Shown here piece by piece: positions 34,874 to 52,794 of a stretch of 64,000 bases of DNA. The position numbers and the translations under genes were made by a program. The notes under the pieces are model-generated. The model searched no databases and had not been told where the DNA came from. It was given only the letters and a program-made list of their open reading frames with translations. Source of the DNA: Escherichia phage KEP4; sequence record PP047754, one strand, 5' to 3'. Every line of letters starts with the position of its first letter. The stretch's first letter is position 1.

Positions 34874-35711
34874 TAATGGACACAACGGGGTTAAGTATGA
34901 AACTCCGTTGTTCTACCAGAATGATTTCCCTCTGTTCATAGAATTTATGGACACGTTTTTCAATTGGCTGTATAGACAGCAGGGGTTCACTCAAGAAGAG
35001 ATCTTGGCATATCTGGCAGATACGTCTAGTTGGATGAATCCCGAGAGTGAAGATTCTCCGGTTAAACAGCTGATTGATTTAAAGGCTGACAAGACTCCAG
35101 GCTCAGAGGCCAAGGATTATTTGTCTGATAAATTCTTGGTTCGTACCTTTGAGAACATGATGGCTCTGGATGCCGAAGAACTTTTAGATGCCGACGGAAG
35201 GCCGCTATTGTCAATAGAAGATAAGAACAAACAGATAGATGACTGGTATAATGATTTTGGTTTCCAACGAACTGTTGATAAATCATTTCAGGAATTTGGT
35301 CATTTTATCCCAGTTGGTTCGGATTCTTTGCTGACGGCAACGGGAGACAGGTTCTCAGTTTACATTGAAGGAACGAAACGGAGAACGCTAGATCATCCAC
35401 GTTGGTTGAAACTGTTAAAACATATCTATAAAATCCGCGGAACCAAGAAAGCAATTGAATTGTTCTTTTGGATATATTTTGGTTGTCCAGTCAGTGTCTA
35501 TTTCCCAAAAGAGGAAATAGGCGGTCTGGATGGCAATTTTGAATGTGACGGTATGACAGGGATGCGTGATGACTATTATTATGATGAGTACACTTACGTG
35601 ATAAGAGTCCCAGGCGACGTATCTGATTTCGAAGGCGTATTTGAACGTGTCTTCCGTCAGCATTTCCATCCTGCTGGGTTTACTGTATTCCTAGAAAGTT
35701 CAAGGAGCTAA
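34857..35711 (+). CDS. putative baseplate-associated structural protein
   Basis: ORF 34824..35711; start placed at MSKDLNNG... (GAGGTG RBS), 17-nt overlap with gp6-like gene. Function from position only. Confidence 0.45.
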   Translation: MSKDLNNGHNGVKYETPLFYQNDFPLFIEFMDTFFNWLYRQQGFTQEEILAYLADTSSWMNPESEDSPVKQLIDLKADKTPGSEAKDYLSDKFLVRTFENMMALDAEELLDADGRPLLSIEDKNKQIDDWYNDFGFQRTVDKSFQEFGHFIPVGSDSLLTATGDRFSVYIEGTKRRTLDHPRWLKLLKHIYKIRGTKKAIELFFWIYFGCPVSVYFPKEEIGGLDGNFECDGMTGMRDDYYYDEYTYVIRVPGDVSDFEGVFERVFRQHFHPAGFTVFLESSRS

Positions 35712-35713
35712 AA

Positions 35714-36904
35714 ATGGCCGATTTCCTGAGTCAATATACAGGTCAGCAGATAGATCAGATATTGGGTTCTGTTGACGACAAAGTAAGTAAAAATGACGTT
35801 ATTAACGATTTTGAAGTTAACGACCCATTGTTTCCACCATCTGCTCGCCTGACATATGAGTTGAAAAGATCTGTTGACACAATCAATGATACTCTGGCCA
35901 ACAAAGTTATTCGTACAGATAGTGGTGAACAAACAATCAATGGCAAAAAGACTTTCAATGCGTTGTTGGTGACCAATGGGGGCATACAAGTCCCCGCCGG
36001 AAAATCCGTTTCAATCACAGATGAACCAACGAACTCGACAGATGGTGTTAACCTGAGCATGTTGAGAAAGCATGGCGTCAGTGAAGACACTACCCCGCCT
36101 GGTTCTGGTTTGGCTGGGGAGTTGTTGACATCCGGATATTACAAATTCAATTTGGATTTCACCAGATTGTCTGCGTATACCGGACCAACGTTGCCGACTT
36201 CAGTTCCTGTACAGACAGATTCTGGAGCGCGTTATTGGACAATGACTGCATTTTTTGATGCGTTGTTTGCAGACAACCGATTTAATGGATATGTGACAAC
36301 GACAGCGTATGACGCAGATATGCTGAGTCTAGAGTCTCAAATTAATAACATCAACACGTCGTTGAACGGGAAAGTCAACACCTCGACTTACAACACTAAG
36401 ATGGCGTCGTTGGATTTGAGTATCTCCAATATCAACACGTCTCTGGGTAATAAAGTCGAGGTCAGCACATATAATACGAAGATGACTTCCTTGGACGGCA
36501 GTATCAGTTCTCTCACGACTGGTAAGGTCGATGTATCAACGTATAATGCCAAAATGACCACAATTGATAACAGTTTAGGGAACGCAGTTTATCGCACAAA
36601 AACAAACTTGTCGTCATACACGGTTTCGGCTTCGGGAACGACGGCTCTTCCAGATTTTGATTTGGTGAACCTTTGTCAAATACTGGTAACTGCGCAATGG
36701 GGGACAGGTAACGTTGTTGACACATATCGAGTAACCATAACTCGTGACGGAACGATCAAATCAGAGTTGTTGGTTCAGAAAAGTACGAGTGGTACAGTGA
36801 CGTTCACAGGGTCTGTGGTGGGCGGTAAATTGAGAATTTCCGTTGTTAATGCGAATACAACAACTGCTTGTTCTGTCGATTATTCTATTGCAGCTTCTTT
36901 CTAA
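35714..36904 (+). CDS. tail fibre-like protein with tandem ~20-aa repeats
   Basis: 396-aa ORF; central repeats (NTSLNGKVNTSTYNTKMASLD / NTSLGNKVEVSTYNTKMTSLD / TGKVDVSTYNAKMTTID) typical of fibrous trimeric proteins. Confidence 0.55.
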   Translation: MADFLSQYTGQQIDQILGSVDDKVSKNDVINDFEVNDPLFPPSARLTYELKRSVDTINDTLANKVIRTDSGEQTINGKKTFNALLVTNGGIQVPAGKSVSITDEPTNSTDGVNLSMLRKHGVSEDTTPPGSGLAGELLTSGYYKFNLDFTRLSAYTGPTLPTSVPVQTDSGARYWTMTAFFDALFADNRFNGYVTTTAYDADMLSLESQINNINTSLNGKVNTSTYNTKMASLDLSISNINTSLGNKVEVSTYNTKMTSLDGSISSLTTGKVDVSTYNAKMTTIDNSLGNAVYRTKTNLSSYTVSASGTTALPDFDLVNLCQILVTAQWGTGNVVDTYRVTITRDGTIKSELLVQKSTSGTVTFTGSVVGGKLRISVVNANTTTACSVDYSIAASF

Positions 36905-36950
36905 AACTAAATACCCCTAGATGACATGAATACATTTAGGGGTATTACAA

Positions 36951-39900
36951 ATGGCCAACAAACCAACACAGCCTCTTTTCCCTTTGGGTTTAGAAACTTC
37001 TGAGTCTTCGAACATAAAAGGCTTCAACAACTCCGGCACTATTGAGCATTCCCCTGGTGCCGTAATGACATTTCCTGAAGATACTGAAGTTACAGGTCTT
37101 CCATCTTCTGTGCGTTACAATCCTGATAGTGATGAATTTGAAGGTTATTACGAAAACGGTGGTTGGTTGTCTTTGGGTGGCGGCGGAATACGCTGGGAAA
37201 CGCTCCCTTACGCTCCCTCTAGCAATTTGTTAGAAGGTCGCGGCTATCTCATTAATAATACGACAGGGACTTCTACAGTGGTTCTCCCTTCCCCTACGCG
37301 CGTTGGTGATTCAGTTACAATTTGTGATGCCTATGGGAAATTCGCGACGTATCCATTGACTGTATCTCCAGCGGGAAATAACCTGTACGGCTCCACCGAA
37401 GATATGACGATATCCACCGATAACGTGTCGGCGACTTTCACTTGGTCTGGTGCCGAGCAGGGTTGGGTTGTTACATCTGGTGTTGGCCTCGGCCAAGGTC
37501 GTGTGTACAGTCGTGAGATTTTCACTCAAATTTTAGCATCTGAAACAAGTGCTGTCACTCTCAATACTCCACCAACAATCGTGGACGTGTATGCTGACGG
37601 AAAACGTCTTGCGGAATCCAAATATTCACTAGATGGGAATGTAATCACTTTCGACCCTTCTTTACCTGCCAGCACTGAATTGCAGGTAATAGAATATACT
37701 CCGATTCAGTTGGGCACTGGCGGCGGGGGTTCGGGCGCTTCTGCAATCACCTGGATTTACAATGGCGGATCCGCTATTGGTGGCGAAACCGAAATAACGC
37801 TAGATATCGTTGTAGATGATGTTCCGGCTATTGATATAAACGGGTCTCGTCAGTACAAAAATCTTGGATTCACGTTCGACCCATTGACGAGTAAAATCAC
37901 TCTGACGCAAGAACTGGAACCAGAAGATGAAGTTGTTGTGGTTATAAATGGGACACCAAACATTTATAACCAAATCGATCGTTCTTTACAGGAAGTTGCT
38001 CGCGCCTACAATTTTACAAATGCTCAAGTTATTTTGAGCAACGATTATACTTCTGTTCTGGATAATAAAGTCGTTATTTATGATACGACATCCCAACGTT
38101 CTTGGGGGATTCCATCTGGAATCCCAGCAGGTTCTACAGTGGTTTCCGTCAATGGGGATCAACTGAAGTACAAAAATGGATCAACTGAAACCACTGTTAC
38201 ATTGGTGAGTGTACCAGGTAGTGCAGAGAAATTGAAGAACGATCTGGCTTCAAACTCTGGTTCAGGTATGTTGAAAACTTCTAGAGGTGATACCGTAGAA
38301 GAAGAATTGACTTTCATTAATCAGAATATGGTCGTTCAAATTTCAGATTTCGCGAGTCTTAGAACTTTAGTGCCAGCCACAGCGGGTATCCGAGTCAAAT
38401 TGAAAGGTTATTATTCTGGTTCTGAAATCGGTGGCGGAGAATTCATTTCTGTCGCTGGAGATGCTGTTGATGATGCTGGGATGATTGCTCGAGTGTCAAG
38501 CAGCTTCTATTGGAAGAGAATTATCGACAAACACATTACTCCTGGCATGTATGGCATCAAAGGGAATCTTCCAGAAGATCCGGCAGTGAAACTGAACGCT
38601 ATGTTTACGGCTGCGGCTGCGGCTAACGCTTATGTCTTACTGAACGATGTCGACACTCTGGTCTGTAAAAGCCCTGTCGTGATTCCAGCACATTCATTAG
38701 TGTACGGCAACAAACGAACTATACTGAAACGTGATGCATCGTTGTCATATGCTAATGATTTCTTGACAATTATGAATGATTCATATGTCAAGGGGATCTA
38801 TGTTGATGGTAGCCGTTTAGATTCTCAGACTCCTCTAGAAGCAGTTTTGGTGCGTATCGCTGGGAATGTAACTATCCATAAGAGTGAGATCCGAAACAAT
38901 GCTGGCTATGGCGTTGTTGGTAACGCAGTCCCTGGTATTCGTATCACCAAGAACATTTTTTCCAACTTCGCCAAAGGTTGTGTAGCCATGTTTGGCGACG
39001 GAACAGCGACGAGTGATGATCTGCAAATTAATGATAACAGATTCTTTAACCTGGGCGCGGGAACCATTTATGTTGGCGGTTACTCAAACTTCCTTGTCGA
39101 CAAAAACGTCGGAAGAGGCACTTACGTGGGTTCTCCAGGAAACCGTCTGTATGTTGTGACCAATACTAACGGGACTATCACCCAAAGCGCTGGGCCAGAT
39201 TTTGGGCCATTGAAAACGGGTATGTTCTTTGTATTGCCTGGTGGTTCTGAACATATGATAACGGCGGTCAACAGCCTTACCAGTGTGACAGTAACCCCAC
39301 CACCGCCGTCGAACGCCACAGTTCGTGCAATCGCAGGGACAGGGGATCTTCTGGGCATCCAATCATGCTCCTACGGCACCATCAGCCGTAACAACCTGAC
39401 CGATTGCGTGACTTACGGAACTGGTGGAGGCACGATGGAGGGGAGCACTCTGGGTTGCAATTATGTCACTTGGGAAGACAACTTCATCCGCAACACAGGT
39501 AAGAACGGAATCAACGTCGGGCAATCAGGCGCTGGGGTTGCCACGTGTTCTATCCTGAGGAACACTCTGATACAGGTTGGTAACGGCGGTCAGGGTGTTG
39601 GCCCAGCGTATCTTCTGCCTTGGTTCGATACGCTAGGTATCGCTCTGTATCAGGGAAACCCAGGTTATATGGCGAATATGGACGTCAGTGATAACAACGT
39701 CTCTACATGGTCTGGCGATCTGAATGACGGCGCTGCTTGGTTTGGTATGAGCGGTTGTACGGAAGCCACTGTGACTTGTACAGGCAACAAATCTTCTGGT
39801 TATTCCGACGGCTATGTTCGTGGAGATATATTAGAAGTCACGTTGACAGGTTATGGTACAGGGGCGGCTGCGACTTCATTCGTTAGTGATGGTGAGTCTA

Positions 39901-40124
39901 TACAGATAACCGTTCAAACAGGTACTTCACCAACAGCTTCACCTTATTTTTCAGTGCGGAAGGCGATCCGCACCCGCCATCAACCGATGATAACGGCGCA
40001 GATCGTCACCACAACTGGGAACATGTCTCATTGTTGGGGTATGCAATCTAGTACAGCAGGAAACTGGATGGTGGGTCAGAATACAACTCCTTCGGGGCTT
40101 ACGACATATTACGCAAAAGGGTAA
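36951..40124 (+). CDS. tailspike protein 1 (right-handed parallel beta-helix)
   Basis: 1057-aa ORF; PbH1-type repeats (NNAGYGVVGNAVPGIRITKNIFSNF ... INDNRFFNLGAGTIYVGG); N-terminal module homologous to that of 42756..45536. Confidence 0.7.
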   Translation: MANKPTQPLFPLGLETSESSNIKGFNNSGTIEHSPGAVMTFPEDTEVTGLPSSVRYNPDSDEFEGYYENGGWLSLGGGGIRWETLPYAPSSNLLEGRGYLINNTTGTSTVVLPSPTRVGDSVTICDAYGKFATYPLTVSPAGNNLYGSTEDMTISTDNVSATFTWSGAEQGWVVTSGVGLGQGRVYSREIFTQILASETSAVTLNTPPTIVDVYADGKRLAESKYSLDGNVITFDPSLPASTELQVIEYTPIQLGTGGGGSGASAITWIYNGGSAIGGETEITLDIVVDDVPAIDINGSRQYKNLGFTFDPLTSKITLTQELEPEDEVVVVINGTPNIYNQIDRSLQEVARAYNFTNAQVILSNDYTSVLDNKVVIYDTTSQRSWGIPSGIPAGSTVVSVNGDQLKYKNGSTETTVTLVSVPGSAEKLKNDLASNSGSGMLKTSRGDTVEEELTFINQNMVVQISDFASLRTLVPATAGIRVKLKGYYSGSEIGGGEFISVAGDAVDDAGMIARVSSSFYWKRIIDKHITPGMYGIKGNLPEDPAVKLNAMFTAAAAANAYVLLNDVDTLVCKSPVVIPAHSLVYGNKRTILKRDASLSYANDFLTIMNDSYVKGIYVDGSRLDSQTPLEAVLVRIAGNVTIHKSEIRNNAGYGVVGNAVPGIRITKNIFSNFAKGCVAMFGDGTATSDDLQINDNRFFNLGAGTIYVGGYSNFLVDKNVGRGTYVGSPGNRLYVVTNTNGTITQSAGPDFGPLKTGMFFVLPGGSEHMITAVNSLTSVTVTPPPPSNATVRAIAGTGDLLGIQSCSYGTISRNNLTDCVTYGTGGGTMEGSTLGCNYVTWEDNFIRNTGKNGINVGQSGAGVATCSILRNTLIQVGNGGQGVGPAYLLPWFDTLGIALYQGNPGYMANMDVSDNNVSTWSGDLNDGAAWFGMSGCTEATVTCTGNKSSGYSDGYVRGDILEVTLTGYGTGAAATSFVSDGESIQITVQTGTSPTASPYFSVRKAIRTRHQPMITAQIVTTTGNMSHCWGMQSSTAGNWMVGQNTTPSGLTTYYAKG

Positions 40125-40174
40125 TATTGAATGCCTAAATACCCCATATTGGTCATCCTTTATGGGGTATTATC

Positions 40175-42715
40175 ATGATTTCTCAATTCAATCAACCACG
40201 CGGTTCCACTTCCATAGAAGTTAACAAACAATCTATCGCTCGAAATTTCGGTGTCAAAGAAGACGAAGTCGTTTATTTCACTGTCGGTATTGACCTCAGT
40301 GGATTTAAAGTAATTTATGATGAGTCTACCCAACGGGCTTATTCTCTCCCTTCCGGTATTGTTTCAGGGACAACTGCAATTAGTCTGGATGAAAGAGCTA
40401 TCCTCACTCATTCTTCTGGCTCTGTTGACCTTGGGGAATTAGCAGTAAGCCGCGAAGAATATGTGACTTTACCTGGTTCTTTTAATTTCGGCCATACCAT
40501 TAATGTGAAAAATGAACTTCTTGTTCACGATGATGAAAAATATCGATGGGATGGTTCTTTGCCAAAGGTAGTTGCCGCTGGTTCTACACCCGATAACTCA
40601 GGCGGTGTTGGCACAGGCGCGTGGATACCTGTTGGCATTAATTCTTTGTCTGGCGATGGTGGTTGGTCGCGTATCGGATCAGAATTTGGTAAATCTTTGA
40701 AAGAACATATTCAAAGTCTTCCCAGCTTGTCTGCTGTCAAATATATGACATTTGTTGAATACGCAGCCCTTTTGGCAGGAAACGACACGGTCAATCATGA
40801 CGTTAAAGTTCAGCAAGTTATGGATGAAGCGCATGAATTGAAATGCTCTGTTTATTTTCCAACAGGGCGTTATGTATTTGACACTGCAGTCAACGTTTGG
40901 ACATACGTTCGCGCTGTTTGGGGAGACGGTTCGGCCATTATCACCAGACGTTACGGAAGTCAGTTTAGTTCCCCTGGGGTGATAGATCCGGCGCATGATA
41001 CGCGTAAATTATTCCGAATGATGGGCGGAGCGTTGGGACCGCAGTCTATTCATGGTCTTATTATTGATGGTAATGCGCGTTCATTTACAGTCCCAAAACA
41101 TACTGATTCGGATCAAACTTATCCCAACCAAACTTATTATGGCGATGTTGAACCAGTCGATGTTGGCCCATATGTATTTGGACCGGAAGGAAATACTTCT
41201 GTTCCTGGCGCTTCTTACTATAACCATGATAAGAAAGAATCCGGTCTGACCGTTTTCGATATGGTGTTTAAAGATCAACCTGGTGGTGGTGTCGTAGGTA
41301 ATGGCCAAAACGTCCGTGTGTTTGGAAATCACTTTATGGGTTGGTATGACCATGCTGTGTATATCGCCGGAAGTAACTTTGCCTCGGAAGGAGACGGAAT
41401 TTTGTGTAGTGATATTGTTGTCACTGGTAACGTATTCCGAAATCGTATTAACAATCGAGGCAATGGAGCAGTCAAAGCACGATTTGGTGTTAATCGTTAC
41501 GCAGTTACAGGCAACTCCTTTGATATAGTTGACTATTGCATGGCATTTGAGATGGGTAATGGACCAGCGACTCAACCATTTGGCCAAATTGTTGTGGACG
41601 GCAACGTGTGCACTTCAGATGGTATGTTTATGCAAATCGGGAATGATATTGGGACTGAGTGGTTCTCGACCAATTGGCTCAAATCAATGACTATTACGAA
41701 TAACACAGCACGGTCGTTGGATCGCATTTTCTTGTTAGGGGTTAGCGGATCTTCCAGTTATATTATGGATGGGTTTTCTGTACAAGTGGCCAATAACCGA
41801 TTTTATGCGCCGTCATTTTTGTCCGTGTACACATTCATGACGAATACGGAATGGATGTTGAATAACAATATCGTGGAGATCACAGGAACTGCTATGATCA
41901 CAGGAGTTGATCAATCGAACATCAACAATTCACGGATATATCTTAAAGATAATGTTTTAGGAGTTCTCCGGACTGATGTTCAAGGTTATGCTGCAGTCAG
42001 TAATTTTCAACAAGTTGAAATTTCTAATAATACATTGCGTAATTTGTATTTCCAAATAGGAAGTTATACCACAGATCTGTTTATTAAAGGAAATACTGTT
42101 AACTACACATCTGCATTATCCAGTAAAAACTTGGCGCTCATGTATTCAAGTGCTGGGAATGGTTTGATAACAGCCGATATCAGTGATAATAAGTTTTTCG
42201 GTGGAGTTGGTCGTTGCCAACTTAAATTCAGTAGCAGCGCTTCTCTGGATTGTATTAACAACAAATTCTTTACAACTTCGGCACCGTTTTTGGAATTGCA
42301 TCCGGCTGGTTATACTCCACGTGTCGTTCGTATAAAGGACAATTTAATGCGTGGTGCAGGCGTATTGCTGGCTCCTCTTGCTTCTGGTGTTTCTTTGTCC
42401 GGTGCTGGGAATTATATGGTAATTTCGGGAAACACGTTGATGGCTAATAACCCATCTGCGCCTGAAAATATAACTTTGTATCAGGACACAGGTGCGCAGA
42501 GTTGGGTGGCCCATTATGAAACTATCAGATGTGTTCGAAATGATTTCAAATCTGCGCTGTTGGCGATTAATGCAACAGGGACAGCACAATCTGGTTTGAG
42601 TACTACCAATAAATTCTGGTTCGGGGATAACGCGACGATTAATACCACGGTTGTTTGTACTTATCCTGCTGGCAACAAAGCCAACACCGACATCACCCAG
42701 ACAGTTTCAGTTTAA
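40175..42715 (+). CDS. tailspike protein 2 (parallel beta-helix)
   Basis: 846-aa ORF; N-terminal about 90 aa alignable to 45591..47825; beta-helix repeats (GNHFMGWYDHAVYIAGSNF ... VVTGNVFRNRINNRGNGA). Confidence 0.7.
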   Translation: MISQFNQPRGSTSIEVNKQSIARNFGVKEDEVVYFTVGIDLSGFKVIYDESTQRAYSLPSGIVSGTTAISLDERAILTHSSGSVDLGELAVSREEYVTLPGSFNFGHTINVKNELLVHDDEKYRWDGSLPKVVAAGSTPDNSGGVGTGAWIPVGINSLSGDGGWSRIGSEFGKSLKEHIQSLPSLSAVKYMTFVEYAALLAGNDTVNHDVKVQQVMDEAHELKCSVYFPTGRYVFDTAVNVWTYVRAVWGDGSAIITRRYGSQFSSPGVIDPAHDTRKLFRMMGGALGPQSIHGLIIDGNARSFTVPKHTDSDQTYPNQTYYGDVEPVDVGPYVFGPEGNTSVPGASYYNHDKKESGLTVFDMVFKDQPGGGVVGNGQNVRVFGNHFMGWYDHAVYIAGSNFASEGDGILCSDIVVTGNVFRNRINNRGNGAVKARFGVNRYAVTGNSFDIVDYCMAFEMGNGPATQPFGQIVVDGNVCTSDGMFMQIGNDIGTEWFSTNWLKSMTITNNTARSLDRIFLLGVSGSSSYIMDGFSVQVANNRFYAPSFLSVYTFMTNTEWMLNNNIVEITGTAMITGVDQSNINNSRIYLKDNVLGVLRTDVQGYAAVSNFQQVEISNNTLRNLYFQIGSYTTDLFIKGNTVNYTSALSSKNLALMYSSAGNGLITADISDNKFFGGVGRCQLKFSSSASLDCINNKFFTTSAPFLELHPAGYTPRVVRIKDNLMRGAGVLLAPLASGVSLSGAGNYMVISGNTLMANNPSAPENITLYQDTGAQSWVAHYETIRCVRNDFKSALLAINATGTAQSGLSTTNKFWFGDNATINTTVVCTYPAGNKANTDITQTVSV

Positions 42716-42755
42716 ATTGAATTGAGCCTAAATACCCCATATTGGCAAATCCTTT

Positions 42756-45536
42756 ATGGGGTATTTTCAAATGACCAGAAATGTAGAAGAATTATTCGGC
42801 GGCGTAATCACAGCTCCCCACCAGATTCCTTTCACTTATAAATCAAGTGTCGGTGGAGAAACTTTCTTTTCTCTACCTTTCTATCCTGTCACTGGCGTAG
42901 TCACAATTAACGGCGGCATGCAAGTTCCGTTAGACAACTTCGAGATAGACGGGAATACGTTGAATCTCGGGCGCGCATTGTCCAAAGGCGATGTTGTGTA
43001 TTGCTTATTCGATAAAATTCTTTCACCAGAAGACACTGCCAAAGGCATCCGCATATACAAATTTCAAGCCGTGGGTGGAGAAACTGAATTCACGCCTGAC
43101 TTTACTTCTTATGGTGTACAGTCTCTTTATATCGGTGGCGAATACAAAACTCCTGATATAGAATATTCCTATAACAGCACGACAGGGAAAGTGTCTTTGC
43201 AAACTGCATTGACTGCAGGCGTTTGGGTAGTCGCTGAAATGTCTGTTAAACAACCGAATATCAGTCCGGCGTTTGATCGCAGTATTCAAGAAATTGCCCG
43301 TTCTGCTAATGTGAAAGACTCTGAAGTCATCGTTAGTACGGACACCATATCTTTATTGGATGGGAAGAAAGTTGTTTATGACGTAGCGGCGCAAACCAGT
43401 TATGGCTTACCAACCATTCCTGATGGTTCTGTCATTTCTTCTGTTAGTAATGGGCAACTTACTTATAATCCAGGTAATGTTGTAGTGGATTTGTTACCTT
43501 TAGAAGATTCATTTATTAATGTGATAAACACTCTGGGGCGCAATGATGGTGCCAAGTATATCGGAGAATGCCATTCTGTTGCTGATCTCAGGAATACTGA
43601 ACCCACTATGGATGGACAACGCATTATTCTTAAGCAACACACTGCGGGTACTCTTCTTGGTGGAGGGGTATTCCGTGCGTTAATTGATGGTACAGGAAAG
43701 ACTGATGATAACGGCACTGTGATCAAAACTGTTGGCGGCGCAGCCTGGTTACGTGTTAATGCTGATAGAGTTAACCCATTCATGTTTGGTGCTTTGGGCG
43801 GTTCTAATGATGATACTATTCCAGTACAATCTTGTGTGGACAGTGGTAAGGCCACACAATTAACTGGTGTACATTACGTTAGCAATATCCGGTTAAAATA
43901 TAATACGTCGTCTATTTATGGGTCTGGATTACATTACTCCAGGTTGCATCAGTTGCCTTCTGCTACTGGGAATTGTATTACCATAAAAGATACATGCTCC
44001 CTTATTGTATTAGACTCCTTTGGGGTATATGGCACAGGTGCACAACAAGGCACATCATTTACTGCGGGTACAACAGGTATCTATATAGAAACTCCTTCAG
44101 GTCTCTCAGCCGATTATCCGTTCCACACTACCGCAGACCCAAGACGCGACTTGTGTATTTCTAAGGTCCATATAGCAGGTTTTGATGAATATGGGTTAAA
44201 TATTGATAGTGGTAACTTTAGTGTTACTACAGATTCTCTTTTAGTCAACCACATCAATCAGGTGGGCGTCCGTTGTGCTACTACTGATTGGACTTGGACA
44301 AATATTCAGGTTAATACCTGCGGTAAACAATGTCTGGTTCTTGATGGTTGTGGTAATGGTCGTATTATTGGTGGTAAATTCATTTGGGCTAACTGGCAAC
44401 CTTATGGTACAGTAGGACAGTTCCCAGGCATTACTATTAATAATAGCCAGAATATGGTTATTAATGGTATTGAGGTACAAGATTGTGGCGGGAATGGCAT
44501 TGAGATTAGCGATTCATATTCAATTTCCATGAACGGATTGAACACCAATCGTAACGGCATCAACGCTAACAACACTTTCTACAACATCGTATTTAACAAA
44601 AGTGATGCAGTTATCAACGGATTCGTAGGACTCAATTATGCTGCGAATAGTGGTTCAGGTGCTAACTCTAGTGCAGGCAATTTTCAGTTCCTGTCTAATG
44701 ATTGCAGCGTCACCATTAATGGTGTGGTTGAGACTGGTTATATGGGCATTAACTTTATTGGTGATAACAATATTATCAACCCCACAAATTCCGAACTGAG
44801 CATTAACGGATTGGTTAATTATTCCAAGACTGGTTTGCAAACCATGAACGAGACCCCTACATTTGATGGTGTTAGCACTACACCTGTTTATGTAAGTGTC
44901 CCATCTTCTGTAGGGCAAGTAAATGGTCTGAGACTATCACAAGCCAACAAAGATAAATTACTGTACTCAAGAACAGCAGGTCCAGAAGGTATTACCATGG
45001 CTGCTGTTGTAGTACCTACCATATCTGGAGCTGAAGTATTTAACTTCATGGCCATTGGTTCAGGGTTTAGTGATACATCCAACAGTCTTCATCTTCAATT
45101 AGTTATAGACGCTTCTGGAAAACAAACAATTGCTTTGCTATTGGGGGGCGATGGTACAACCCAAATTTTATCTGGGGATTTACCTAACGACCTTAAACTA
45201 CAAAGTGGTGTGCCATATCATATAGCTATTGGTGCTAAACCTGGATATTTCTGGTGGAGTATTCTTAATATTCAGACGGGTAAGAGAATCAGACGGTCAT
45301 TCCGAGGCGCTTATTTAGCTGTACCATTTAATTCTATATTCGGATTAACTTCTTCATTAACATTCTTCTCGGATAGCAATGCTGGTGGGGATGCCTGTTC
45401 TGGTGTAGGTGCTAAAGTGTATGTTGGTATGTTCTCTTCTGAGAATGATTATGTAGCTTCACGGTACTACAACCTGATTAATCCTGTAGACCCTAATAAG
45501 TTAATTAGTTACCGTATATTGGATTCTTCTATTTAA
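42756..45536 (+). CDS. tailspike protein 3 (parallel beta-helix)
   Basis: 926-aa ORF; shares the FDRSIQEIARSANVKDSEVIVSTD...VVYD... module with tailspike 1; Asn/Gly-rich beta-helix repeats. Confidence 0.7.
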   Translation: MGYFQMTRNVEELFGGVITAPHQIPFTYKSSVGGETFFSLPFYPVTGVVTINGGMQVPLDNFEIDGNTLNLGRALSKGDVVYCLFDKILSPEDTAKGIRIYKFQAVGGETEFTPDFTSYGVQSLYIGGEYKTPDIEYSYNSTTGKVSLQTALTAGVWVVAEMSVKQPNISPAFDRSIQEIARSANVKDSEVIVSTDTISLLDGKKVVYDVAAQTSYGLPTIPDGSVISSVSNGQLTYNPGNVVVDLLPLEDSFINVINTLGRNDGAKYIGECHSVADLRNTEPTMDGQRIILKQHTAGTLLGGGVFRALIDGTGKTDDNGTVIKTVGGAAWLRVNADRVNPFMFGALGGSNDDTIPVQSCVDSGKATQLTGVHYVSNIRLKYNTSSIYGSGLHYSRLHQLPSATGNCITIKDTCSLIVLDSFGVYGTGAQQGTSFTAGTTGIYIETPSGLSADYPFHTTADPRRDLCISKVHIAGFDEYGLNIDSGNFSVTTDSLLVNHINQVGVRCATTDWTWTNIQVNTCGKQCLVLDGCGNGRIIGGKFIWANWQPYGTVGQFPGITINNSQNMVINGIEVQDCGGNGIEISDSYSISMNGLNTNRNGINANNTFYNIVFNKSDAVINGFVGLNYAANSGSGANSSAGNFQFLSNDCSVTINGVVETGYMGINFIGDNNIINPTNSELSINGLVNYSKTGLQTMNETPTFDGVSTTPVYVSVPSSVGQVNGLRLSQANKDKLLYSRTAGPEGITMAAVVVPTISGAEVFNFMAIGSGFSDTSNSLHLQLVIDASGKQTIALLLGGDGTTQILSGDLPNDLKLQSGVPYHIAIGAKPGYFWWSILNIQTGKRIRRSFRGAYLAVPFNSIFGLTSSLTFFSDSNAGGDACSGVGAKVYVGMFSSENDYVASRYYNLINPVDPNKLISYRILDSSI

Positions 45537-45590
45537 AAATATACCCCTCTTCGGAGGGTATTTACTAGAGAAAAACAGGAGATTCTTATT

Positions 45591-47825
45591 ATGAATCCGC
45601 AATTTGCTCAACCAAAAGGTTCTACTTCAAAAGAATCGAATAAAGATAGCATCGCCCGTAAATTTGGGTGCAAAAAGTCGGAAGTCGTTTATGCGAAATC
45701 AGGACAGTCCTTGTCTGGTTATAAGGTTATTTATGACAAGGAAACACAGAGAGCGTATTCCTTGCCTGTAGATATTCCAGCAGGAACCACGGTTATTAGC
45801 CTTAGCGCCAGTGCTCTGCTTGTACACTCTGGGGGTTCTGTAGACCTGGGCGAACTAGCTTCCCAACGCAATGAATATAATGTATTACCTGGTTCTTTTA
45901 CTACTGGTGCAATAGTATCCACAAAGAATGATGTACTTACCCACAATGGTATCCAGTATCGTTGGAATGGTTCATTACCTAAAGTTGTACCTCAGAACTC
46001 TTTACCATCCAGTGATGATAATTGGATTGGCTTGGGTGCTTCTTATCTGAAGGAACAGCTTAACAGTACCAGTGGTGCATCCATGGTAGTACTGGCTAAT
46101 GGCAAAACCATTGAAGAAGAATTTGCCGAAGAAGCTGCATGGCAGAACCAAGAGAATATGGTGAGAACCGTTATTCCTAATGTTTATCACCATATCCGTG
46201 GCGTTCAGCGTCACTCTGGTAAAAACTTAGCATGGTCTGCTCCAGACGTTGCTATTGATAAACTTAACCCTACGGATACCGTCTTCTACCGTATGCCCCA
46301 GATTGTTAAAACTGGTGATGGTACTCTGATGATTTTCTGTAATGAGTTGCATGGTAACAATACAGATATTGGTGCTACTCCAGATCAGCAATGTAATATC
46401 GTTATGAAATACTCCATTGATAATGGGTGGTCTTGGTCGGCTAAGGTAGTGGTAGCTAACTTTGGGGCTACGTATCAGAACGGTGAGATTGCTGCTGTGT
46501 ATAACCCAGCAGATGGTCGGGTATACTGTTACTTTACTTCCTGCAAAGGCCAGTTGGGTTGGGGATACTCACAGCCAGGCAATGACCCTAATACATCATC
46601 CCAGATATATGTTACCTACTGTGATGCGGAAGCTCCTACTATATGGCGTACACCAGCTAACCTTACTGCTACCCTTAAGCCAGCAACGGCAGATTTTATC
46701 TGGACTTCACCAACTAAACCAGTTGTTTTACCGGATGGTAAGATGGCAATGATTGTGTCTACCGTCACTGGTTCACGGGTTGATTCTTTCCTTACCATCA
46801 TGAAGTATGACATTAAGTACAGCATGGACTACGTACTTAGTTCCGAAGAATCTGGTGGGGAAGTCGGACTGAACCTTTTGCCGGATGGTCGTATGGTGAT
46901 GAACTCTCGTGCTTACCACACCACAGACCTTAAAGGGCTTCAGAAATTCTATATCAGTGATCATCAGTTTAAGAACTGGCAGCACTTATCTGATTTAGTT
47001 ACATCGGATAGTAAGGGTGACCTGGTTCCTATTTTTGATGGGGTTAATGGTGTTCTTACTTGGGCGTTTACTTGTGCTAATGGTGTAGGTGATAATTCTA
47101 TTGGTCGTACTAACTACCGAGTATGGATTAGTCGTGACCTAGTTACTTGGGGGTTAGCTCCTACTGGGGATATCAACACAAGTGATTCTGTTGGGTACAT
47201 CGCATCAATGCCTGGTGGTGATGATGGTTATGTAATCTCTACATCTGAATCAGGTGGTTTTGGTGGTATTTGGTTTACTCAATGGAATGCTAAGTATATC
47301 CAGAACAGAAACTACAACCGCTATCACAAAGAGTTGCGAGAATTAGAGTCAGTAGATGAAACAGCAATGCTCGCATCCGGTGCTATTCCTAACTACTCTT
47401 TTTACGTAAACAAAGACTCCAACCTAATTAACTTCAACCGCAACGGTACTCCAGTTAAGATTCAGCAGTTGGGGGTTAGTCAGAATGCTGTTGATAAGTA
47501 CACTACAACTCAGACCCTAGCATCTATTCCTGTAGATGGTGTTGATATTGTATTAGTCACTGGTTCTGGTACTACTCTTACCCTTAGTGGGTTTAGCGGT
47601 GGATATATGGGCCAGCGTGTGACAGTTATCTCTGATTCATCTGGTGGTGGGGTGGTGCTTAAACGTGCTGATACAACATTGCCTACTGTAACGGACAGAT
47701 TCCACTTTAATGTGGCAGGAGCCTTTACTGCTTTGAGGGTAGACTATGCAACTAAGATGATGGCTACTTTAGTTAAGACTCCATCTGGTTGGTTCACGGA
47801 AAGTATTGCTAACGTAACAATCTAA
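45591..47825 (+). CDS. tailspike protein 4 with putative sialidase/BNR-like domain
   Basis: 744-aa ORF; N-terminus homologous to tailspike 2; one canonical Asp-box SIDNGWSW and one degenerate (SRDLVTW). Confidence 0.65.
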   Translation: MNPQFAQPKGSTSKESNKDSIARKFGCKKSEVVYAKSGQSLSGYKVIYDKETQRAYSLPVDIPAGTTVISLSASALLVHSGGSVDLGELASQRNEYNVLPGSFTTGAIVSTKNDVLTHNGIQYRWNGSLPKVVPQNSLPSSDDNWIGLGASYLKEQLNSTSGASMVVLANGKTIEEEFAEEAAWQNQENMVRTVIPNVYHHIRGVQRHSGKNLAWSAPDVAIDKLNPTDTVFYRMPQIVKTGDGTLMIFCNELHGNNTDIGATPDQQCNIVMKYSIDNGWSWSAKVVVANFGATYQNGEIAAVYNPADGRVYCYFTSCKGQLGWGYSQPGNDPNTSSQIYVTYCDAEAPTIWRTPANLTATLKPATADFIWTSPTKPVVLPDGKMAMIVSTVTGSRVDSFLTIMKYDIKYSMDYVLSSEESGGEVGLNLLPDGRMVMNSRAYHTTDLKGLQKFYISDHQFKNWQHLSDLVTSDSKGDLVPIFDGVNGVLTWAFTCANGVGDNSIGRTNYRVWISRDLVTWGLAPTGDINTSDSVGYIASMPGGDDGYVISTSESGGFGGIWFTQWNAKYIQNRNYNRYHKELRELESVDETAMLASGAIPNYSFYVNKDSNLINFNRNGTPVKIQQLGVSQNAVDKYTTTQTLASIPVDGVDIVLVTGSGTTLTLSGFSGGYMGQRVTVISDSSGGGVVLKRADTTLPTVTDRFHFNVAGAFTALRVDYATKMMATLVKTPSGWFTESIANVTI

Positions 47826-47831
47826 AATACA

Positions 47832-47858
47832 AGCCCCCAATAAGGGGGCTTTCTTTTG
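47832..47858 (+). terminator. rho-independent terminator
   Basis: AGCCCCC-AATAA-GGGGGCT hairpin followed by TTCTTTTG, just after the tailspike 4 stop. Confidence 0.7.
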
Positions 47859-47955
47859 CTATGTCTCGTTAACCTGACAGGAACTGGAAGTTCAAAACTA
47901 TCTATTGGCTGTATACTAAATATCTCTATAAAATGGCACTCGATGGAGCATCAAA

Positions 47956-50900
47956 ATGCAATCTACAAATTTAAACCGTCGCCCGTATTGGGATGACTGG
48001 AATCCTGGGAAACGTTTTTCACGGATTCTTTTTCGTCCGATGCCTATCAAGGTTCAGACTCGCGAACTGAATCAGATGCAGACTATTCTTCAGGATCAAA
48101 TTGAAAAACTGGGCAACCATTTGTTCAAAGATGGTTCTATGGTTATCCCTGGCGGTTTGACGATCACTAACGCCGCAGTCTCTTTGAAATTCACTTTGGC
48201 TGGTGGTACTGAATTCACTGATCTGGAAGGTATTTCTGAACTCTACGTTTTGGGGAAAGACAATAACGCCAAAGCGCGTGTGCTGTCTCTTGAACGTGAT
48301 CTGTCTGCTCCTGATACAATGCTGGCTATCCTTGAGATGACTGAAGCGGGTAATGCTGACGGATTCCATGTTAACGATAATCTGTATTTCCAGACTTACG
48401 ACGTGAATGATAATTTCATTCGTATTGGTTATGGGATCGCGGCTGCTGTGACTGGTTCTATCGTTGCTCGTATGACGAAAGGCGTTTACTTCATTCGTGG
48501 GATGTTCCTAGACGTTGATGACGCGACTCTTATCGTTGATAAAACTTCGAACACGTCTTCCCACCGCGTCGGATTTAAAGTCACTGAAACCATCGTGACT
48601 GAATCTGAAGACGAATCCCTTTATTCAAATGCTCAGGGAACGATTAACTCCAAAGCCCCAGGCGCTCATCGTCTTCGAATAGATCTGGTCTTATCTCGAT
48701 TTGATTATGATGCTGTGGTTGAAGACTTTGTTGAACTGGCCAAAGTTCGTGATGGTAAAATCCAGTCTATGGTGACTCAGTCCACCTATAATATTCTGGA
48801 AGACACGTTGGCCCAACGGACGTATGAAACCAACGGCGATTACAACGTTTCAACGCACCAGATCGACATCCGCGAACACCTGAAAGTCAATAACAATGGT
48901 GGTGTATTCAATGCTGCTGATGGCGGCGACGAAAGTAAATTCGTGTCTGTAATGAAACCAGGTATTTCCTATGTTCGCGGTCGCCGTATCGAAAACGTCG
49001 GGGAAGAGTTGGTGATCGTTGATAAGGCGCGGGATACCGATGTCCTGAACAACACCCCTGTTGCGGTGGCCACAGGCAATTATCTGGTCACTAAGAATTC
49101 TAAAGGTGTGCCAGTGATATCCCGCACCGTTCGATACAAATTACTGAATGCTTCAGGCGTTACCCAGGCTACAGCACTTTGTATATCAGCTGAACGTAAT
49201 TCAACAGAATTTCGTCTGTATATGCGCGACCTGGTCGTTACTGGCGATGCATCCACTATCACCAAAGTGTCTTACGAAGAAAGCGGTATCACCATGTTCT
49301 CTGCTGAACTGGAATCCAATCAGTTTAACCAGAGTTCTATGATAGATCTGATCTTCTCTCTTCCGGTATTCGGTGTCAAGACTTTAGCACCAACTGGCTC
49401 CGTGGATATCAACTACACTGTTCTCAGAACGTATAAAGTGACGTTGGACAACAGCGGCGCGGGTTCTATTTCTGCTCCATTGGGATATAGTTTTTCCCCA
49501 GAATTTTCGTTGTACTCTGCAGCGAAATCTGATGGTTCTGAAGCGCAGTTCGATATCTCTGGTTCTTTGTCTTTGACTGGTTCTCCGGTCGGTTCGGCGT
49601 TGCAGATTTCTCTGGGCAGTGGTAATGCTAACCAGTCAATCAATTTGCTGGCGCTGATGATTCGTACCACGGCCACAATCAAAACGAAGACCATCACTGA
49701 AACAACTGAAACAGTGACGTTCACCTCGCAGACTAGCCACCCTTTGGCGAATCACGATGGTTGGAAATTGGTGTCGGTCAAAAACGATACTGGCGCAGAC
49801 GTGACCTCCAGCTTCGTCCTAGATGGCGGACAGCGTGATGCAGGGTATTACAAGTCTAACTTGTTATCCAGCGCTGGAGCAATCTCAGGGACGTATACAG
49901 TGGTGTATCAATACTTCGCCCACAGTTCCGGTGATTTCTTCTCTGCTGATTCGTATACTTCGATGGATTATAAAGATATCCCGAATTATACATCTTCTAC
50001 ATCAGGCGCGGTGTACGGCCTGGCAGATAGTTTGGATTTCCGTCCGAAAATCACCAACGGAACTTCTGACACAGATATGGTTCGTCCAAACACTGCAGTT
50101 ATTCTGGACACAGAATATTATCTGCCGCGTATTGACGCGATTTATCTGGCAGATAACGGTGTGTTTGGTGTGGCTCGTGGCATCAGTTCGAACAATCTGG
50201 CTTCTCCAGCAATCCCAGCGAACGCCATGCGTTTGTATGAATTGTTGATCCCACCGTATACGCCGAATATTGATGATATCCAAATTCGCACTATTGACAA
50301 TCGTCGTTATACGATGCGCGATATCGGTAAACTGGAAACCCGTATTTCCAATGTTGAATACTATACCTCTCTGTCACAGTTGGAATCTTCAGCGATGACA
50401 CAGCAAGTGTTTGACCCCATCACGGGTAATCCTCGTTTCAAAAATGGTATTGCAGCTGATCCGTTCAAAGACTTCCGGTTGATTGATGACTTGTCTGAAG
50501 ATTGGATGGGTTCTATCGATACCGAAAACGGACGTCTGCGCCCGTTTGTACAACAAAACGTTGTTGACATGACTCCGGTTGGCTGGAACAAAGTGATGGA
50601 TGGGATGGTGGTTTGTAATTACACGCCTGAAATCTCAGTGAACCAAGAATATGCGACGACGACGATCAACGTTAACCCGTATGCAGTATTCAACTGGGAA
50701 GGTTTCTTGAAGATTAACCCGACCACGGACTACTGGTTCGAAAACTATTATGTTGCCCCGCGTATTATTAATGAAACGATCAACACCCGTGGTACTGTAC
50801 AAGAAGGTTCAGTGTACGGAACATGGCGGACTGTTTCTGTTTCTGATCGTGTTTGGGAGCCGCATGGTGCTGGTGGTGTGTGGTGGGGATATCGTTACCG

Positions 50901-52794
50901 CACGACTGTTTCTGCCCGTGATGTGACCACATACACATACACAGACAAAACAACCACGACCATGACTGGTGAACAGATTGTGGAGACGCAAGTTATCCCA
51001 TACATGCGCGAGATCGATATTTCTTTCGACGCATCTGGACTGCGACCTTTCACTCGTATGTATGCGTTCTTCTCTGGTCGTGACGTCAATCTGTATTGCA
51101 AACCGAATGGCGGTAATTTCGGTGACCCAATCACCACTGATGCCAATGGTGCTGTTAAAGGTGTATTCCGCGTTCCACAGAACGATACAATCAAGTTCAA
51201 CACAGGTGACAACGTGTTCCGCTTGACAGATAGCCCTGTTGATAGTAAATCTGCGGATGATACACTGACCAATGCAGAAATTGTTCATAAATCTTTCGGC
51301 AAGAAACAAGGTATTCAAAAGACCTTTGTCAACACTCGTGTCTTGGGTTACACTGCCAGCACTCGCACCGAAACTTCTACTTCTGAAGTTGTGGTCGACC
51401 AATGGCGTGATCCGATTGCCCAATCGTTTATGGTGGCGACTAAGATTGGCGGCGAGTATATCGAAGGCGTGGAAGTATTCTTCTCTACCAAATCTCGCGA
51501 TGTACCGATCACTTTGGAAATTCGCGAGATGGAGAATGGCTTACCTTCTCACACAGTCATTACTCGTAAGACTTTGAACCCATCTGAAGTGACGATCTCT
51601 ACAGACTCTTCCGGCGGTACGAAGTTCACCTTTGATTATCCGGTGTATCTGCAAGCATCGACTGAGTTTGCTATCGTTTTGTTGGCGAATACTCAGGATT
51701 ACAACGCGTATATCGCGGAAATGGGCAAGAAAAACCTTCTGTCCAACGAATATATCGCCAAACAACCGTATACAGGGGTGTTCTTCACTTCTTCAAACGG
51801 TTCAACTTGGTCTCCGAACCAAATGGCTGATATGAAATTCCGCATATATCGTTGCAACTTTGCGGCTGGTCAGAACGTTGTAACATTTGATCCGAAGCTC
51901 GGGCCAAAACAACGTCCTCTGGGTCTGAACACTCTCAACTGTGTGAGCGGGTCTTCTGTTGTGACGGTGTTTGCACCTGGTCATGGTTTGGTTGCTGGGA
52001 ACAATGTTACTCTGTCTGAATTGACAGGTGGTTGTGGGTTCACCCCAGAACAACTCAACAAAACATTTACCGTGACAGACGCAAGCTATACTTCATTCAA
52101 GATTGATGTTGGCGCAGCAGCAGACAGCAACGGTCAGATTGGTGGTGACAACGCATCTTTCTTGGGCAATTATCTGGTTGATATGTTCTATGCCAGTGTC
52201 ACCAATTCAGCTCTGGAAGGTTCAATTCTGAAATTGGAATATCGCTATCGCGATGCTACTTCCAATTCTATGTCTGATTGGGCTGAATTTGAAACTGACA
52301 CTGACGTGGCGTTGCCGACTGAAGGGATCTATCGTCAGGTCGGGGATTTCCAGATCCGAGCCACCATGACGCGCAGTGAAAACAACGTGTACACCGCTCC
52401 AATGATTGATGGTGATGACCTGAGCGTAATCTTCAACTCATACGGCGTGGATCCATTTGAAGATGTCTTCAAATATGTGACAAAAGACATCGGATTTGAT
52501 AACCCATGTTCGACTGTGAAGTTGTTCTTTGGTGCAATGCTCCCATCTCAGTCTTCTATGAAGGTGCAGGTGAAACTTCTTAGAGCAGGTCAGGAGATGG
52601 ATAGTGTGGCTTGGGAAGATGTTACTCCAACGTCGCCTCTGGTCAACGACGGTTCTACATTCTTTGAATATGAATACGACAAGACTGTGGCGAGCAATAA
52701 CCCGTTTGTTGGCCTGAAAGTCCGAGCGCTTGTACGGGGGAACCGCGTTGCTCCTCCATCATTCAAAGACTTCCGTCTTATTGCTCTGGCATAA
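47956..52794 (+). CDS. very large virion structural protein (putative baseplate/tail-fibre-associated)
   Basis: 1612-aa ORF with the CTAAATATC motif 32 nt upstream; Thr/Ser/Gly/Asn-rich like fibrous proteins. Function inferred from position between tailspikes and neck genes. Confidence 0.55.
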   Translation: MQSTNLNRRPYWDDWNPGKRFSRILFRPMPIKVQTRELNQMQTILQDQIEKLGNHLFKDGSMVIPGGLTITNAAVSLKFTLAGGTEFTDLEGISELYVLGKDNNAKARVLSLERDLSAPDTMLAILEMTEAGNADGFHVNDNLYFQTYDVNDNFIRIGYGIAAAVTGSIVARMTKGVYFIRGMFLDVDDATLIVDKTSNTSSHRVGFKVTETIVTESEDESLYSNAQGTINSKAPGAHRLRIDLVLSRFDYDAVVEDFVELAKVRDGKIQSMVTQSTYNILEDTLAQRTYETNGDYNVSTHQIDIREHLKVNNNGGVFNAADGGDESKFVSVMKPGISYVRGRRIENVGEELVIVDKARDTDVLNNTPVAVATGNYLVTKNSKGVPVISRTVRYKLLNASGVTQATALCISAERNSTEFRLYMRDLVVTGDASTITKVSYEESGITMFSAELESNQFNQSSMIDLIFSLPVFGVKTLAPTGSVDINYTVLRTYKVTLDNSGAGSISAPLGYSFSPEFSLYSAAKSDGSEAQFDISGSLSLTGSPVGSALQISLGSGNANQSINLLALMIRTTATIKTKTITETTETVTFTSQTSHPLANHDGWKLVSVKNDTGADVTSSFVLDGGQRDAGYYKSNLLSSAGAISGTYTVVYQYFAHSSGDFFSADSYTSMDYKDIPNYTSSTSGAVYGLADSLDFRPKITNGTSDTDMVRPNTAVILDTEYYLPRIDAIYLADNGVFGVARGISSNNLASPAIPANAMRLYELLIPPYTPNIDDIQIRTIDNRRYTMRDIGKLETRISNVEYYTSLSQLESSAMTQQVFDPITGNPRFKNGIAADPFKDFRLIDDLSEDWMGSIDTENGRLRPFVQQNVVDMTPVGWNKVMDGMVVCNYTPEISVNQEYATTTINVNPYAVFNWEGFLKINPTTDYWFENYYVAPRIINETINTRGTVQEGSVYGTWRTVSVSDRVWEPHGAGGVWWGYRYRTTVSARDVTTYTYTDKTTTTMTGEQIVETQVIPYMREIDISFDASGLRPFTRMYAFFSGRDVNLYCKPNGGNFGDPITTDANGAVKGVFRVPQNDTIKFNTGDNVFRLTDSPVDSKSADDTLTNAEIVHKSFGKKQGIQKTFVNTRVLGYTASTRTETSTSEVVVDQWRDPIAQSFMVATKIGGEYIEGVEVFFSTKSRDVPITLEIREMENGLPSHTVITRKTLNPSEVTISTDSSGGTKFTFDYPVYLQASTEFAIVLLANTQDYNAYIAEMGKKNLLSNEYIAKQPYTGVFFTSSNGSTWSPNQMADMKFRIYRCNFAAGQNVVTFDPKLGPKQRPLGLNTLNCVSGSSVVTVFAPGHGLVAGNNVTLSELTGGCGFTPEQLNKTFTVTDASYTSFKIDVGAAADSNGQIGGDNASFLGNYLVDMFYASVTNSALEGSILKLEYRYRDATSNSMSDWAEFETDTDVALPTEGIYRQVGDFQIRATMTRSENNVYTAPMIDGDDLSVIFNSYGVDPFEDVFKYVTKDIGFDNPCSTVKLFFGAMLPSQSSMKVQVKLLRAGQEMDSVAWEDVTPTSPLVNDGSTFFEYEYDKTVASNNPFVGLKVRALVRGNRVAPPSFKDFRLIALA

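Follow-up and report, generated by a model that had tools for sequence, protein, structure and literature searches.

A probable Kuttervirus tailspike cassette with a sialidase-like TSP1 in Escherichia phage KEP4

Introduction

What do four large genes in a row build together, and which hosts would their products let a phage reach? Escherichia phage KEP4 (sequence record PP047754) raises this question in a stretch of 64,000 nucleotides (nt), referred to here as the window. Four consecutive open reading frames (ORFs) on its + strand, ORFs A to D, encode proteins of 1057, 846, 926 and 744 amino acids (aa), and 40–54 nt separate one from the next. A first-pass annotation, made from the letters alone, had described them as tandem tailspike genes of a branched complex like that of CBA120-type phages, and all four ORFs are present exactly where it had placed them.

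The region is very probably the tsp4-tsp3-tsp2-tsp1 cassette of a Kuttervirus (Ackermannviridae; the CBA120/Vi01/ECML-4 group), whose four tailspike proteins (TSPs) would sit together in one branched complex. ORF A corresponds to tsp4 (36951..40124), ORF B to tsp3 (40175..42715), ORF C to tsp2 (42771..45536, or 42756-45536 in the mechanical 926-aa call) and ORF D to tsp1 (45591..47825). We document which genes make up the cassette, their domain homologies and folds, the catalytic residues that are kept and the points of recombination, and set out the assembly, host range and exchange history that they suggest.

A Kuttervirus tailspike locus

Both DNA similarity and gene order place the locus among the kutterviruses. 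In a collection of 50,697 phage records, a megablast search with the region matched 218, mostly Salmonella and Escherichia kutterviruses. The best DNA match of the tsp region was Escherichia phage ECML-4 (Kuttervirus, Ackermannviridae), at 97.7% identity over 83% of the query. A gp6-like wedge gene, a 295-aa ORF, a homologue of CBA120 orf215, tsp4-tsp3-tsp2-tsp1 and a VrlC gene follow one another in the window, and the order is the same in ECML-4, AR2819, Vi01 and CBA120. ORF calls, Pfam matches and synteny agree in setting the tsp cluster between the wedge gene and orf215 homologue on one side and vrlC on the other.

We found nothing that contradicts the assignment to a Kuttervirus cassette. 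In every respect that can be tested on sequence, the locus appears to fit the CBA120/Vi01-type system, which is already known. PHROG families already hold ORFs A and D at full length, phrog_19374 spanning the whole of ORF A. The cluster leaves current understanding unchanged, and mainly confirms the Kuttervirus origin of the window and the first-pass recognition of a tailspike cluster.

Comparison with CBA120 (orf210-213; PDB 4OJ5, 6W4Q/5W6P, 5W6F/6NW9, 5W6H, 7REJ/7RFO) reveals what is shared and what is not. The two phages have in common the gene order and flanks, a near-identical TSP4 N-terminus, TSP2 at 97.5% identity, the TSP3 head at 90.7% and a D1 head domain in all four spikes. In contrast, the TSP4, TSP3 and TSP1 bodies are unrelated between them, TSP1 of the window is a propeller and not a beta-helix, and TSP4 of the window appears to lack the D2 module.

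Architecture of TSP4, TSP2 and TSP3

ORF A has the layout of a TSP4, the spike that carries the baseplate anchor. Its residues 1-339 (nt 36951-37967) match the crystallised CBA120 TSP4-N (PDB 7REJ/7RFO/7RFV) with E=1e-212 and 711 bits. In the domain definitions of PMC8825819, they comprise the baseplate anchor AD, followed by the T4 gp10-like domains XD1, XD2 and XD3. Behind them come a D1 head (~342-430), a neck and D3' (to ~545) and a beta-helix receptor-binding body, in which Pfam Beta_helix matches residues 631-719 at 29 bits against a cutoff of 25.9. The D2 module is apparently missing from ORF A, with no Tail_spike_N match in Pfam and no match to 5W6H. The protein is 98.3% identical to Vi01 gp173 (tail fibre), 98.3% to AR2819 gp53 (typed TSP4-12 in PMC10892097) and 98.2% to ECML-4 gp193. 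Its match to CBA120 TSP4 is limited to residues 1-523, at 67% identity.

ORF C corresponds to CBA120 TSP2 from end to end. It matches PDB 6W4Q (full-length CBA120 TSP2) at 2038 bits, query residues 6-926 covering chain residues 1-921, and is 98.8% identical to AR2819 gp55, 98.5% to ECML-4 gp190 and 97.5% to CBA120 TSP2 over all 921 aa. The docking domains XD2-XD3 (aa 1-168) stand first, followed by a D1 head, a neck/D3' and an O157-type glycosidase body which, by its identity to the CBA120 TSP2 crystal structure, should essentially be a beta-helix. The TSP2 catalytic residues named in PMC7506556, Asp506, Glu568, Asp571 and Tyr623, are all kept in ORF C. Because ORF C is so close to CBA120 TSP2, the comparison implies an E. 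coli O157-specific glycosidase, and O157 is predicted as one host. Family databases are silent on this protein: Pfam gave no match for ORF C, and NCBIfam gave none for ORFs A-C.

The tsp2 gene probably starts at ATG 42771 and encodes 921 aa, so that the mechanical ORF begins five codons too early. Three facts point to this start: the TSP2 chain aligns from query residue 6, the ECML-4, AR2819 and CBA120 TSP2 proteins are all 921 aa long, and the upstream ATG at 42756 belongs to a conserved hairpin before the gene, where it is part of the 3' arm.

ORF B joins a CBA120-type head to a body of Vi01 type. The D1-D2 head (aa 1-164, nt 40175-40666) matches CBA120 TSP3 (PDB 5W6F/6NW9) with E=1e-91, and Pfam Tail_spike_N, which marks the D2 module, is found at residues 90-155 (E=1.5e-30). 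The remainder, aa 165-846, is a Vi01-type beta-helix receptor-binding body, and the protein as a whole is 98.3% identical to Vi01 gp172 (tail spike 3). An AlphaFold2 model computed from a 24-sequence alignment has a mean pLDDT (predicted local distance difference test) of 74, exceeds 90 for most of residues 540-800 and has short periodic strands. Foldseek matches to CBA120 spikes were driven by the head and were set aside. The other matches are the RbmB lyase, the HK620 tailspike, PfbA, alginate lyases and the phi92 colanidase, all of them right-handed beta-helix proteins.

These results bear on the first-pass claim that all four proteins have beta-helix repeats. The claim holds for ORF A by Pfam, for ORF B by AlphaFold and Foldseek and for ORF C by identity to a crystal structure; it fails for ORF D, which has a sialidase-type propeller instead.

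Within the phage collection, the DNA of the ORF B body occurs in Vi01 only, plus a 343-nt relic in ECML-4, and one protein from an NCBI contig of 156,357 bp (P0001) is 100% identical to the body over aa 165-846. Outside kutterviruses, more distant homologues of the body (window 40667-42712; P0002-P0027, 49-85% identity) occur behind other N-terminal adaptors, among them a P22-type head-binding domain (PF09008) in genomes of Salmonella and E. fergusonii and a T7-type tail-fibre N-terminus (PF03906) in metagenomic contigs. Its presence on PF09008 and PF03906 N-termini indicates a receptor-binding module that is traded across different attachment types.

One head domain in all four spikes

The spikes had been described as two pairs, A with C and B with D, each pair sharing its own N-terminal adaptor. 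Sequence similarity within both pairs is statistically well supported. BLASTP aligns A 275-543 with C 105-353 (~270 residues, 31% identity, E=1e-29) and B 1-160 with D 1-162 (57% identity, E=8e-49). We ran the pairwise alignments that the annotation had proposed as a check, scoring Smith-Waterman alignments against 500 residue shuffles, and the similarities hold, with z=11-78 for the shared modules: 11.3 for XD3, 25.7 for D1 (A vs C), 14.9 for neck/D3' and 77.9 for the B/D heads. The C-terminal domains, which had been called divergent, indeed have little or no similarity to one another (z from -0.5 to 3.6, highest for A vs B).

The location of the A/C module has to be revised. The block that ORFs A and C share is internal, spanning XD3-D1-neck-D3', and is not N-terminal; residues 1-274 of ORF A have no detectable counterpart in ORF C (z=0.9).

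The division into two modules does not survive either. The motifs DRSxQExAR...VxYD and NQPRGSTS...KVIYDESTQRAYSLP, which had been assigned to separate modules, both belong to a single D1 head domain that occurs in all four proteins. D1 homology crosses the pairs: A 342-432 aligns with B 14-115 (E=4e-6) and C 166-257 with D 7-99 (E=2e-7), cross-pair z values are 12.6-14.6, and a four-way alignment has invariant positions at IAR, V.YD, Q and P. On this cross-pair homology we rejected two distinct adaptor families. ORFs B and D begin directly with D1, and in ORFs A and C the domain lies further in. A D1 head domain has been described for all four CBA120 spikes (PMC8825819, PMC8432352).

A probable branched receptor-binding complex

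Work on CBA120 provides a template for how the KEP4 spikes may assemble. In CBA120, TSP4 is the spike anchored on the baseplate. TSP2 uses its XD2 to dock on TSP4, the TSP1 head binds TSP4 XD3 and the TSP3 head binds TSP2, with TSP4 XD3 also required (PMC8825819). Ultracentrifugation and electron microscopy showed the quaternary complex (PMC8825819), and the branched-complex model is drawn from PMC8432352 as well. This docking scheme differs from the assembly logic of the first-pass annotation, in which pairs of spikes shared an adaptor.

From the CBA120 literature we infer physical assembly, enzymatic activities and receptors for the KEP4 proteins. Four trimeric spikes would form one branched receptor-binding complex per baseplate site. 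TSP4 (ORF A) would anchor to the baseplate through AD, and through XD1, and would supply the gp10-like XD docking domains. TSP2 (ORF C) would dock on TSP4 via XD2, the D1 head of TSP1 (ORF D) would bind TSP4 XD3, and the head of TSP3 (ORF B) would bind TSP2 XD3, with TSP4 XD3 needed. Each spike would present a different C-terminal module that binds and cleaves polysaccharide, those of ORFs A and B being Vi01-type beta-helices. With a different module on each spike, the phage may be able to use several O-antigens or capsules.

The domain layout distinguishes this arrangement from one in which the four proteins are independent fibres or spikes, each mounted separately on the baseplate. GenBank labels for the four do vary, between 'tail fiber', 'tail protein' and 'hypothetical protein', and would be compatible with separate fibres. 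However, the baseplate anchor AD and XD1 occur in ORF A only, ORFs B and D lack an anchor and open directly on a D1 head, and ORF C starts with the XD2-XD3 docking domains of TSP2. The near-identical CBA120 proteins, moreover, form a quaternary complex (PMC8825819). We regard independent mounting as very improbable. The CBA120-type branched multi-tailspike interpretation, already advanced in the first pass, is in turn supported by near-identity to CBA120, Vi01 and ECML-4 proteins.

Several results pull in the other direction from this branched Kuttervirus complex. The likeness of XD2 between ORF A 81-275 and ORF C 6-105 is undetectable pairwise (z=0.9), unlike that of XD3 (z=11.3), so that XD2 in ORF C is assigned through the 97.5% match of the whole protein with CBA120 TSP2. 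The head of ORF D has only 54% identity to the CBA120 TSP1 head, and docking of ORF D on TSP4 XD3 is therefore extrapolated. The sialidase domain of ORF D stays below every curated family threshold. No record of the phage collection holds all four genes together, the best coverage being 83%.

A sialidase-like propeller on TSP1

TSP1 of the window mounts a six-bladed beta-propeller on a Kuttervirus head. ORF D consists of a D1-D2 head (aa 1-163), a helical neck (~174-193), the propeller (~210-565, nt 46218-47285) and a beta-rich C-terminal domain (~583-744). Residues 1-163 match the heads of TSP1, TSP3, G7C gp63.1 and Shigella phage B2 Gp48 (PDB 4OJ5, 5W6F, 9D84_A), and Pfam Tail_spike_N matches at 91-141, so that the D2 module is hit in ORFs B and D only. 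The closest relatives are ECML-4 gp189 (99.3% identity) and AR2819 gp56 (99.1%).

Sequence and structure searches both lead from the propeller to sialidases. With phmmer, ORF D matches the bacterial sialidases 8FEB/8GN6 at E=4e-10. The AlphaFold2 model has a mean pLDDT of 67, and about 80 across residues 210-560. Foldseek searches with this model returned sialidase chains for all of the top 50 PDB matches and identified the core as a six-bladed propeller; the best match was the P. gingivalis sialidase 8GN6 (E=5.7e-17, probability 1.00, TM(target) 0.57, a template-modelling score). Matches in BFVD, a library of predicted viral structures, include adenovirus sialidase/fibre proteins and a Serratia phage sialidase-domain protein.

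Residues central to sialidase catalysis are conserved in ORF D. In the alignment with the P. gingivalis enzyme, Y233-R-M-P236 falls on YRIP, with R234 as its Arg, and D259 falls on D219, the acid/base residue mutated in PDB 8T26. The Asp-box S275-I-D-N-G-W-S-W282 aligns with STDGGKSW, and E424 and R440 align with the Glu and the second Arg. ORF D thus has the (F/Y)RIP Arg, the acid/base Asp and an Asp-box. Beyond the aligned stretch, all of 10 homologues that are 34-69% identical to ORF D keep R506, R510, Y536 and E553. By their NanH-like spacing, R506/R510, Y536 and E553 are candidates for the third Arg, the Tyr that acts as nucleophile and the Glu that stabilises it (S. typhimurium NanH numbering), and the spacing of the residues would then fit the GH33 pattern Arg-Asp-Glu-Arg-Arg-Tyr-Glu.

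The propeller may make TSP1 an active depolymerase. Judged from sequence and model, we tentatively read ORF D as a sialidase-family enzyme on the branched complex, one that would set host range on O-antigens or capsules containing sialic or other nonulosonic acids. Its substrate is presumably a sugar of nonulosonic-acid type. E. coli O145, E. coli O104 and Salmonella O48 are among the candidates for bacteria with such glycans.

An inactive, lectin-like propeller would serve the spike differently, as a glycan adhesin, or the domain may be aimed at a non-sialic substrate. Such a role would suit the weak likeness to sialidases (E=4e-10, 13-19% identity in structural alignments), the moderate confidence of the AlphaFold model and the position of ORF D below every curated family threshold. 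The propeller has no Pfam match at E<=0.01, and NCBIfam NF052328 scores 38 bits against a cutoff of 900, which likewise counts against an enzyme of this family; being below these thresholds, ORF D is filed as sialidase-like and not as a proven GH33 member. In the literature searched, sialidase-type TSP1 is annotated and has been detected in virions, with no receptor or activity reported. Yet YRMP, D259, E424 and R440 align with catalytic positions, and R506/R510, Y536 and E553 stay invariant down to homologues of 34% identity. The spacing just described adds to this. The whole catalytic constellation is apparently kept, which would not be expected of an inactive domain, and we consider a binding-only or non-sialic role unlikely.

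The sialidase-like TSP1 can be compared with two kinds of propeller protein. With GH33 exo-sialidases (P. gingivalis PG_0352, PDB 8FEB/8GN6/8T26) it shares the six-bladed propeller, the YRxP Arg, the Asp-box, and the Asp, Glu and second Arg; unlike them, it sits behind a Kuttervirus D1-D2 head, and it has only 13-19% identity to them and lies under the family cutoffs. With the K1F endosialidase it shares a propeller mounted on a phage spike (PMC12632334). No chain of the K1F type (GH58) appears among the sequence matches of ORF D or its top 50 Foldseek matches. Both sets of matches consist of exo-sialidases, with few exceptions from bacteria or humans.

Propeller-type TSP1, the single deviation of the locus from the standard account, can already be found in GenBank annotations and, as TSP1-20, in subtype tables. 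PMC10892097 takes ECML-4 gp189 as its reference for subtype TSP1-20 and gp190 as that for TSP2-1. The propeller and C-terminal region of ORF D (nt 46100-47825) recur at 99.5% DNA identity in 15 phage records, Sajous1 included. Carriers of TSP1-20 are ECML-4, FEC14, AR2819, Sajous1 and about ten other kutterviruses. The propeller module is also found in one Enterobacter hormaechei and one Alcaligenes faecalis protein.

A TSP set predicts host range, and the KEP4 set has value in this respect. Besides the predicted O157 glycosidase, it combines Vi01-type TSP3 and TSP4 bodies with a sialidase-type TSP1, spikes A, B and D being those to which the literature searched assigns no receptor.

A mosaic assembled at head-body junctions

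The tsp set is a mosaic: its tsp4 and tsp3 match Vi01, and its tsp2 and tsp1 match ECML-4. No single record of the phage collection has this combination. Relative to Vi01, ORFs A and B are both 98.3% identical to gp173/gp172, within contiguous DNA homology over window 35001-43499. In contrast, Vi01 has other TSP2 and TSP1 bodies, homology to ORF C ending at ~aa 247 and homology to ORF D at ~aa 50. Relative to ECML-4, ORFs A, C and D are 98.2%, 98.5% and 99.3% identical to gp193, gp190 and gp189. Its tsp3 is where ECML-4 differs, with another body (a protein of 627 aa) and only the last 91 codons of a Vi01-type tsp3.

DNA comparisons with four relatives locate the breaks. ECML-4 is homologous over window 35001-40590 and 42373-53000, and differs from B aa ~139 to 733. 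AR2819 is homologous over 35001-40611 and from 42722 onward, and the break runs from B ~aa 146 through the rest of that ORF. Vi01 homology resumes at 45544-45741 and again from 47898 onward, which places its breaks at C ~aa 248 and D ~aa 50. CBA120 is homologous over 35195-38004, 40135-40635, 42722-45993 and from 47905 onward, with breaks at A ~aa 351, B ~aa 154 and D ~aa 134. These positions place the exchange points at the D1/D2 head-body junctions, as has been proposed in PMC8432352.

A remnant in ECML-4 records one such exchange. ECML-4 gp191, annotated as a 91-aa 'hypothetical protein' (ECML-4 11432-11707), shares 98.9% identity with the final 91 residues of ORF B, and its region corresponds to the 343 nt at window 42373-42715. 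On sequence, gp191 is the stranded 3' end of a tsp3 of Vi01 type, a leftover from the event in which ECML-4 took a different tsp3 body. Together with the head-body breakpoints, this relic illustrates the swapping of receptor-binding modules, which is relevant to engineering phage host range.

Relics of this kind raise the prospect that one or more of the KEP4 tsp genes are themselves decaying or redundant leftovers of cassette swaps. We find this very improbable. Although ECML-4 gp191 shows that relics exist in the locus, all four KEP4 ORFs are intact and full length against their closest relatives, with 98-99% identity end to end, and the start-site context of each tsp gene is kept across phages. 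Furthermore, tail spike/fibre products of the related phage Sajous1, including the sialidase-type tail protein, were detected in virions. A cassette of four intact spike genes is what these observations favour.

The cassette also stands apart from the rest of the genome. Over window 1-25000 the backbone agrees with Salmonella phage kage at 99.7% identity, and kage is absent from the matches listed for the tsp cluster (best 30 of 218). With a backbone that matches kage and a tsp cluster whose best overall match is ECML-4, the tailspike region is mosaic relative to the remainder of the genome.

Intergenic hairpins and flanking genes

A recurrent hairpin precedes three of the four tsp genes. It has the form AATACCCC-N21-GGGGTATT before tsp4, where it occupies 36910..36946 (+), ends 4 nt before the ATG and folds at -19.1 kcal/mol (z=-6.2). 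The same hairpin lies at 40138..40171 (+) before tsp3, ending 3 nt before the ATG (-19.6 kcal/mol, z=-4.2), and at 42731..42765 (+) before tsp2, ending 5 nt before ATG 42771 (-19.9 kcal/mol, z=-4.2). A pattern search for AATACCCC-N18-21-GGGGTATT gave 3 matches against 0 expected, and ECML-4, AR2819, Vi01 and CBA120 have the hairpins in these three positions too. In an Rfam scan of the window at gathering thresholds, three tRNAs were the only matches, and the intergenic hairpins had none.

The hairpin may combine a promoter-like and a translational element. Its 5' arm lies inside the motif CTAAATAcCcc, which is regarded as late-promoter-like. A GGGG run in the 3' arm lies at Shine-Dalgarno distance. 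On the - strand, the exact motif recurs a fourth time at 25175-25185, again with a similar hairpin, and an ATG follows at 25152. PMC7283392 lists CTAAATAcCcc as a regulatory motif unique to Ackermannviridae. The hairpin could be a promoter/translation switch that couples late transcription to translation, or could supply homology at cassette boundaries for tsp swapping.

The tsp1 gene is equipped differently. It has no hairpin element and carries an AGGAG Shine-Dalgarno sequence instead; the tsp2-tsp1 spacer folds no better than shuffles (z=-0.01) and contains only a weak terminator-like stem. After tsp1, a strong intrinsic-terminator-like hairpin at 47831..47851 (+; 8 pairs, 6 of them G-C, then a T-run) closes the cluster. 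A sigma-70 promoter scan was not enriched, with 33 found against 38.2 expected, and we therefore drew no promoter calls.

The flanking genes belong to the same conserved neighbourhood. Upstream, the wedge gene at 33041-34873 has gp6-like Pfam matches. The 396-aa neighbour of tsp4 (35714..36904, +) is the homologue, by synteny, of CBA120 orf215 and of Vi01 gp174, a 'putative tail fibre', and is covered by phrog_3838 over its full length. Downstream, a gene at 47956..52794 (+) encodes a VrlC-like protein of 1612 aa with a Pfam DUF4815 match (E=3.8e-61), and its syntenic counterpart ECML-4 gp188 is annotated 'vrlC protein'. The three tRNA genes, Ser-GCT, Asn-GTT and Met-CAT, lie on the - strand at 28374-29695. 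CBA120 has a corresponding tRNA cluster, which additionally includes a tRNA-Ile and an HNH endonuclease gene.

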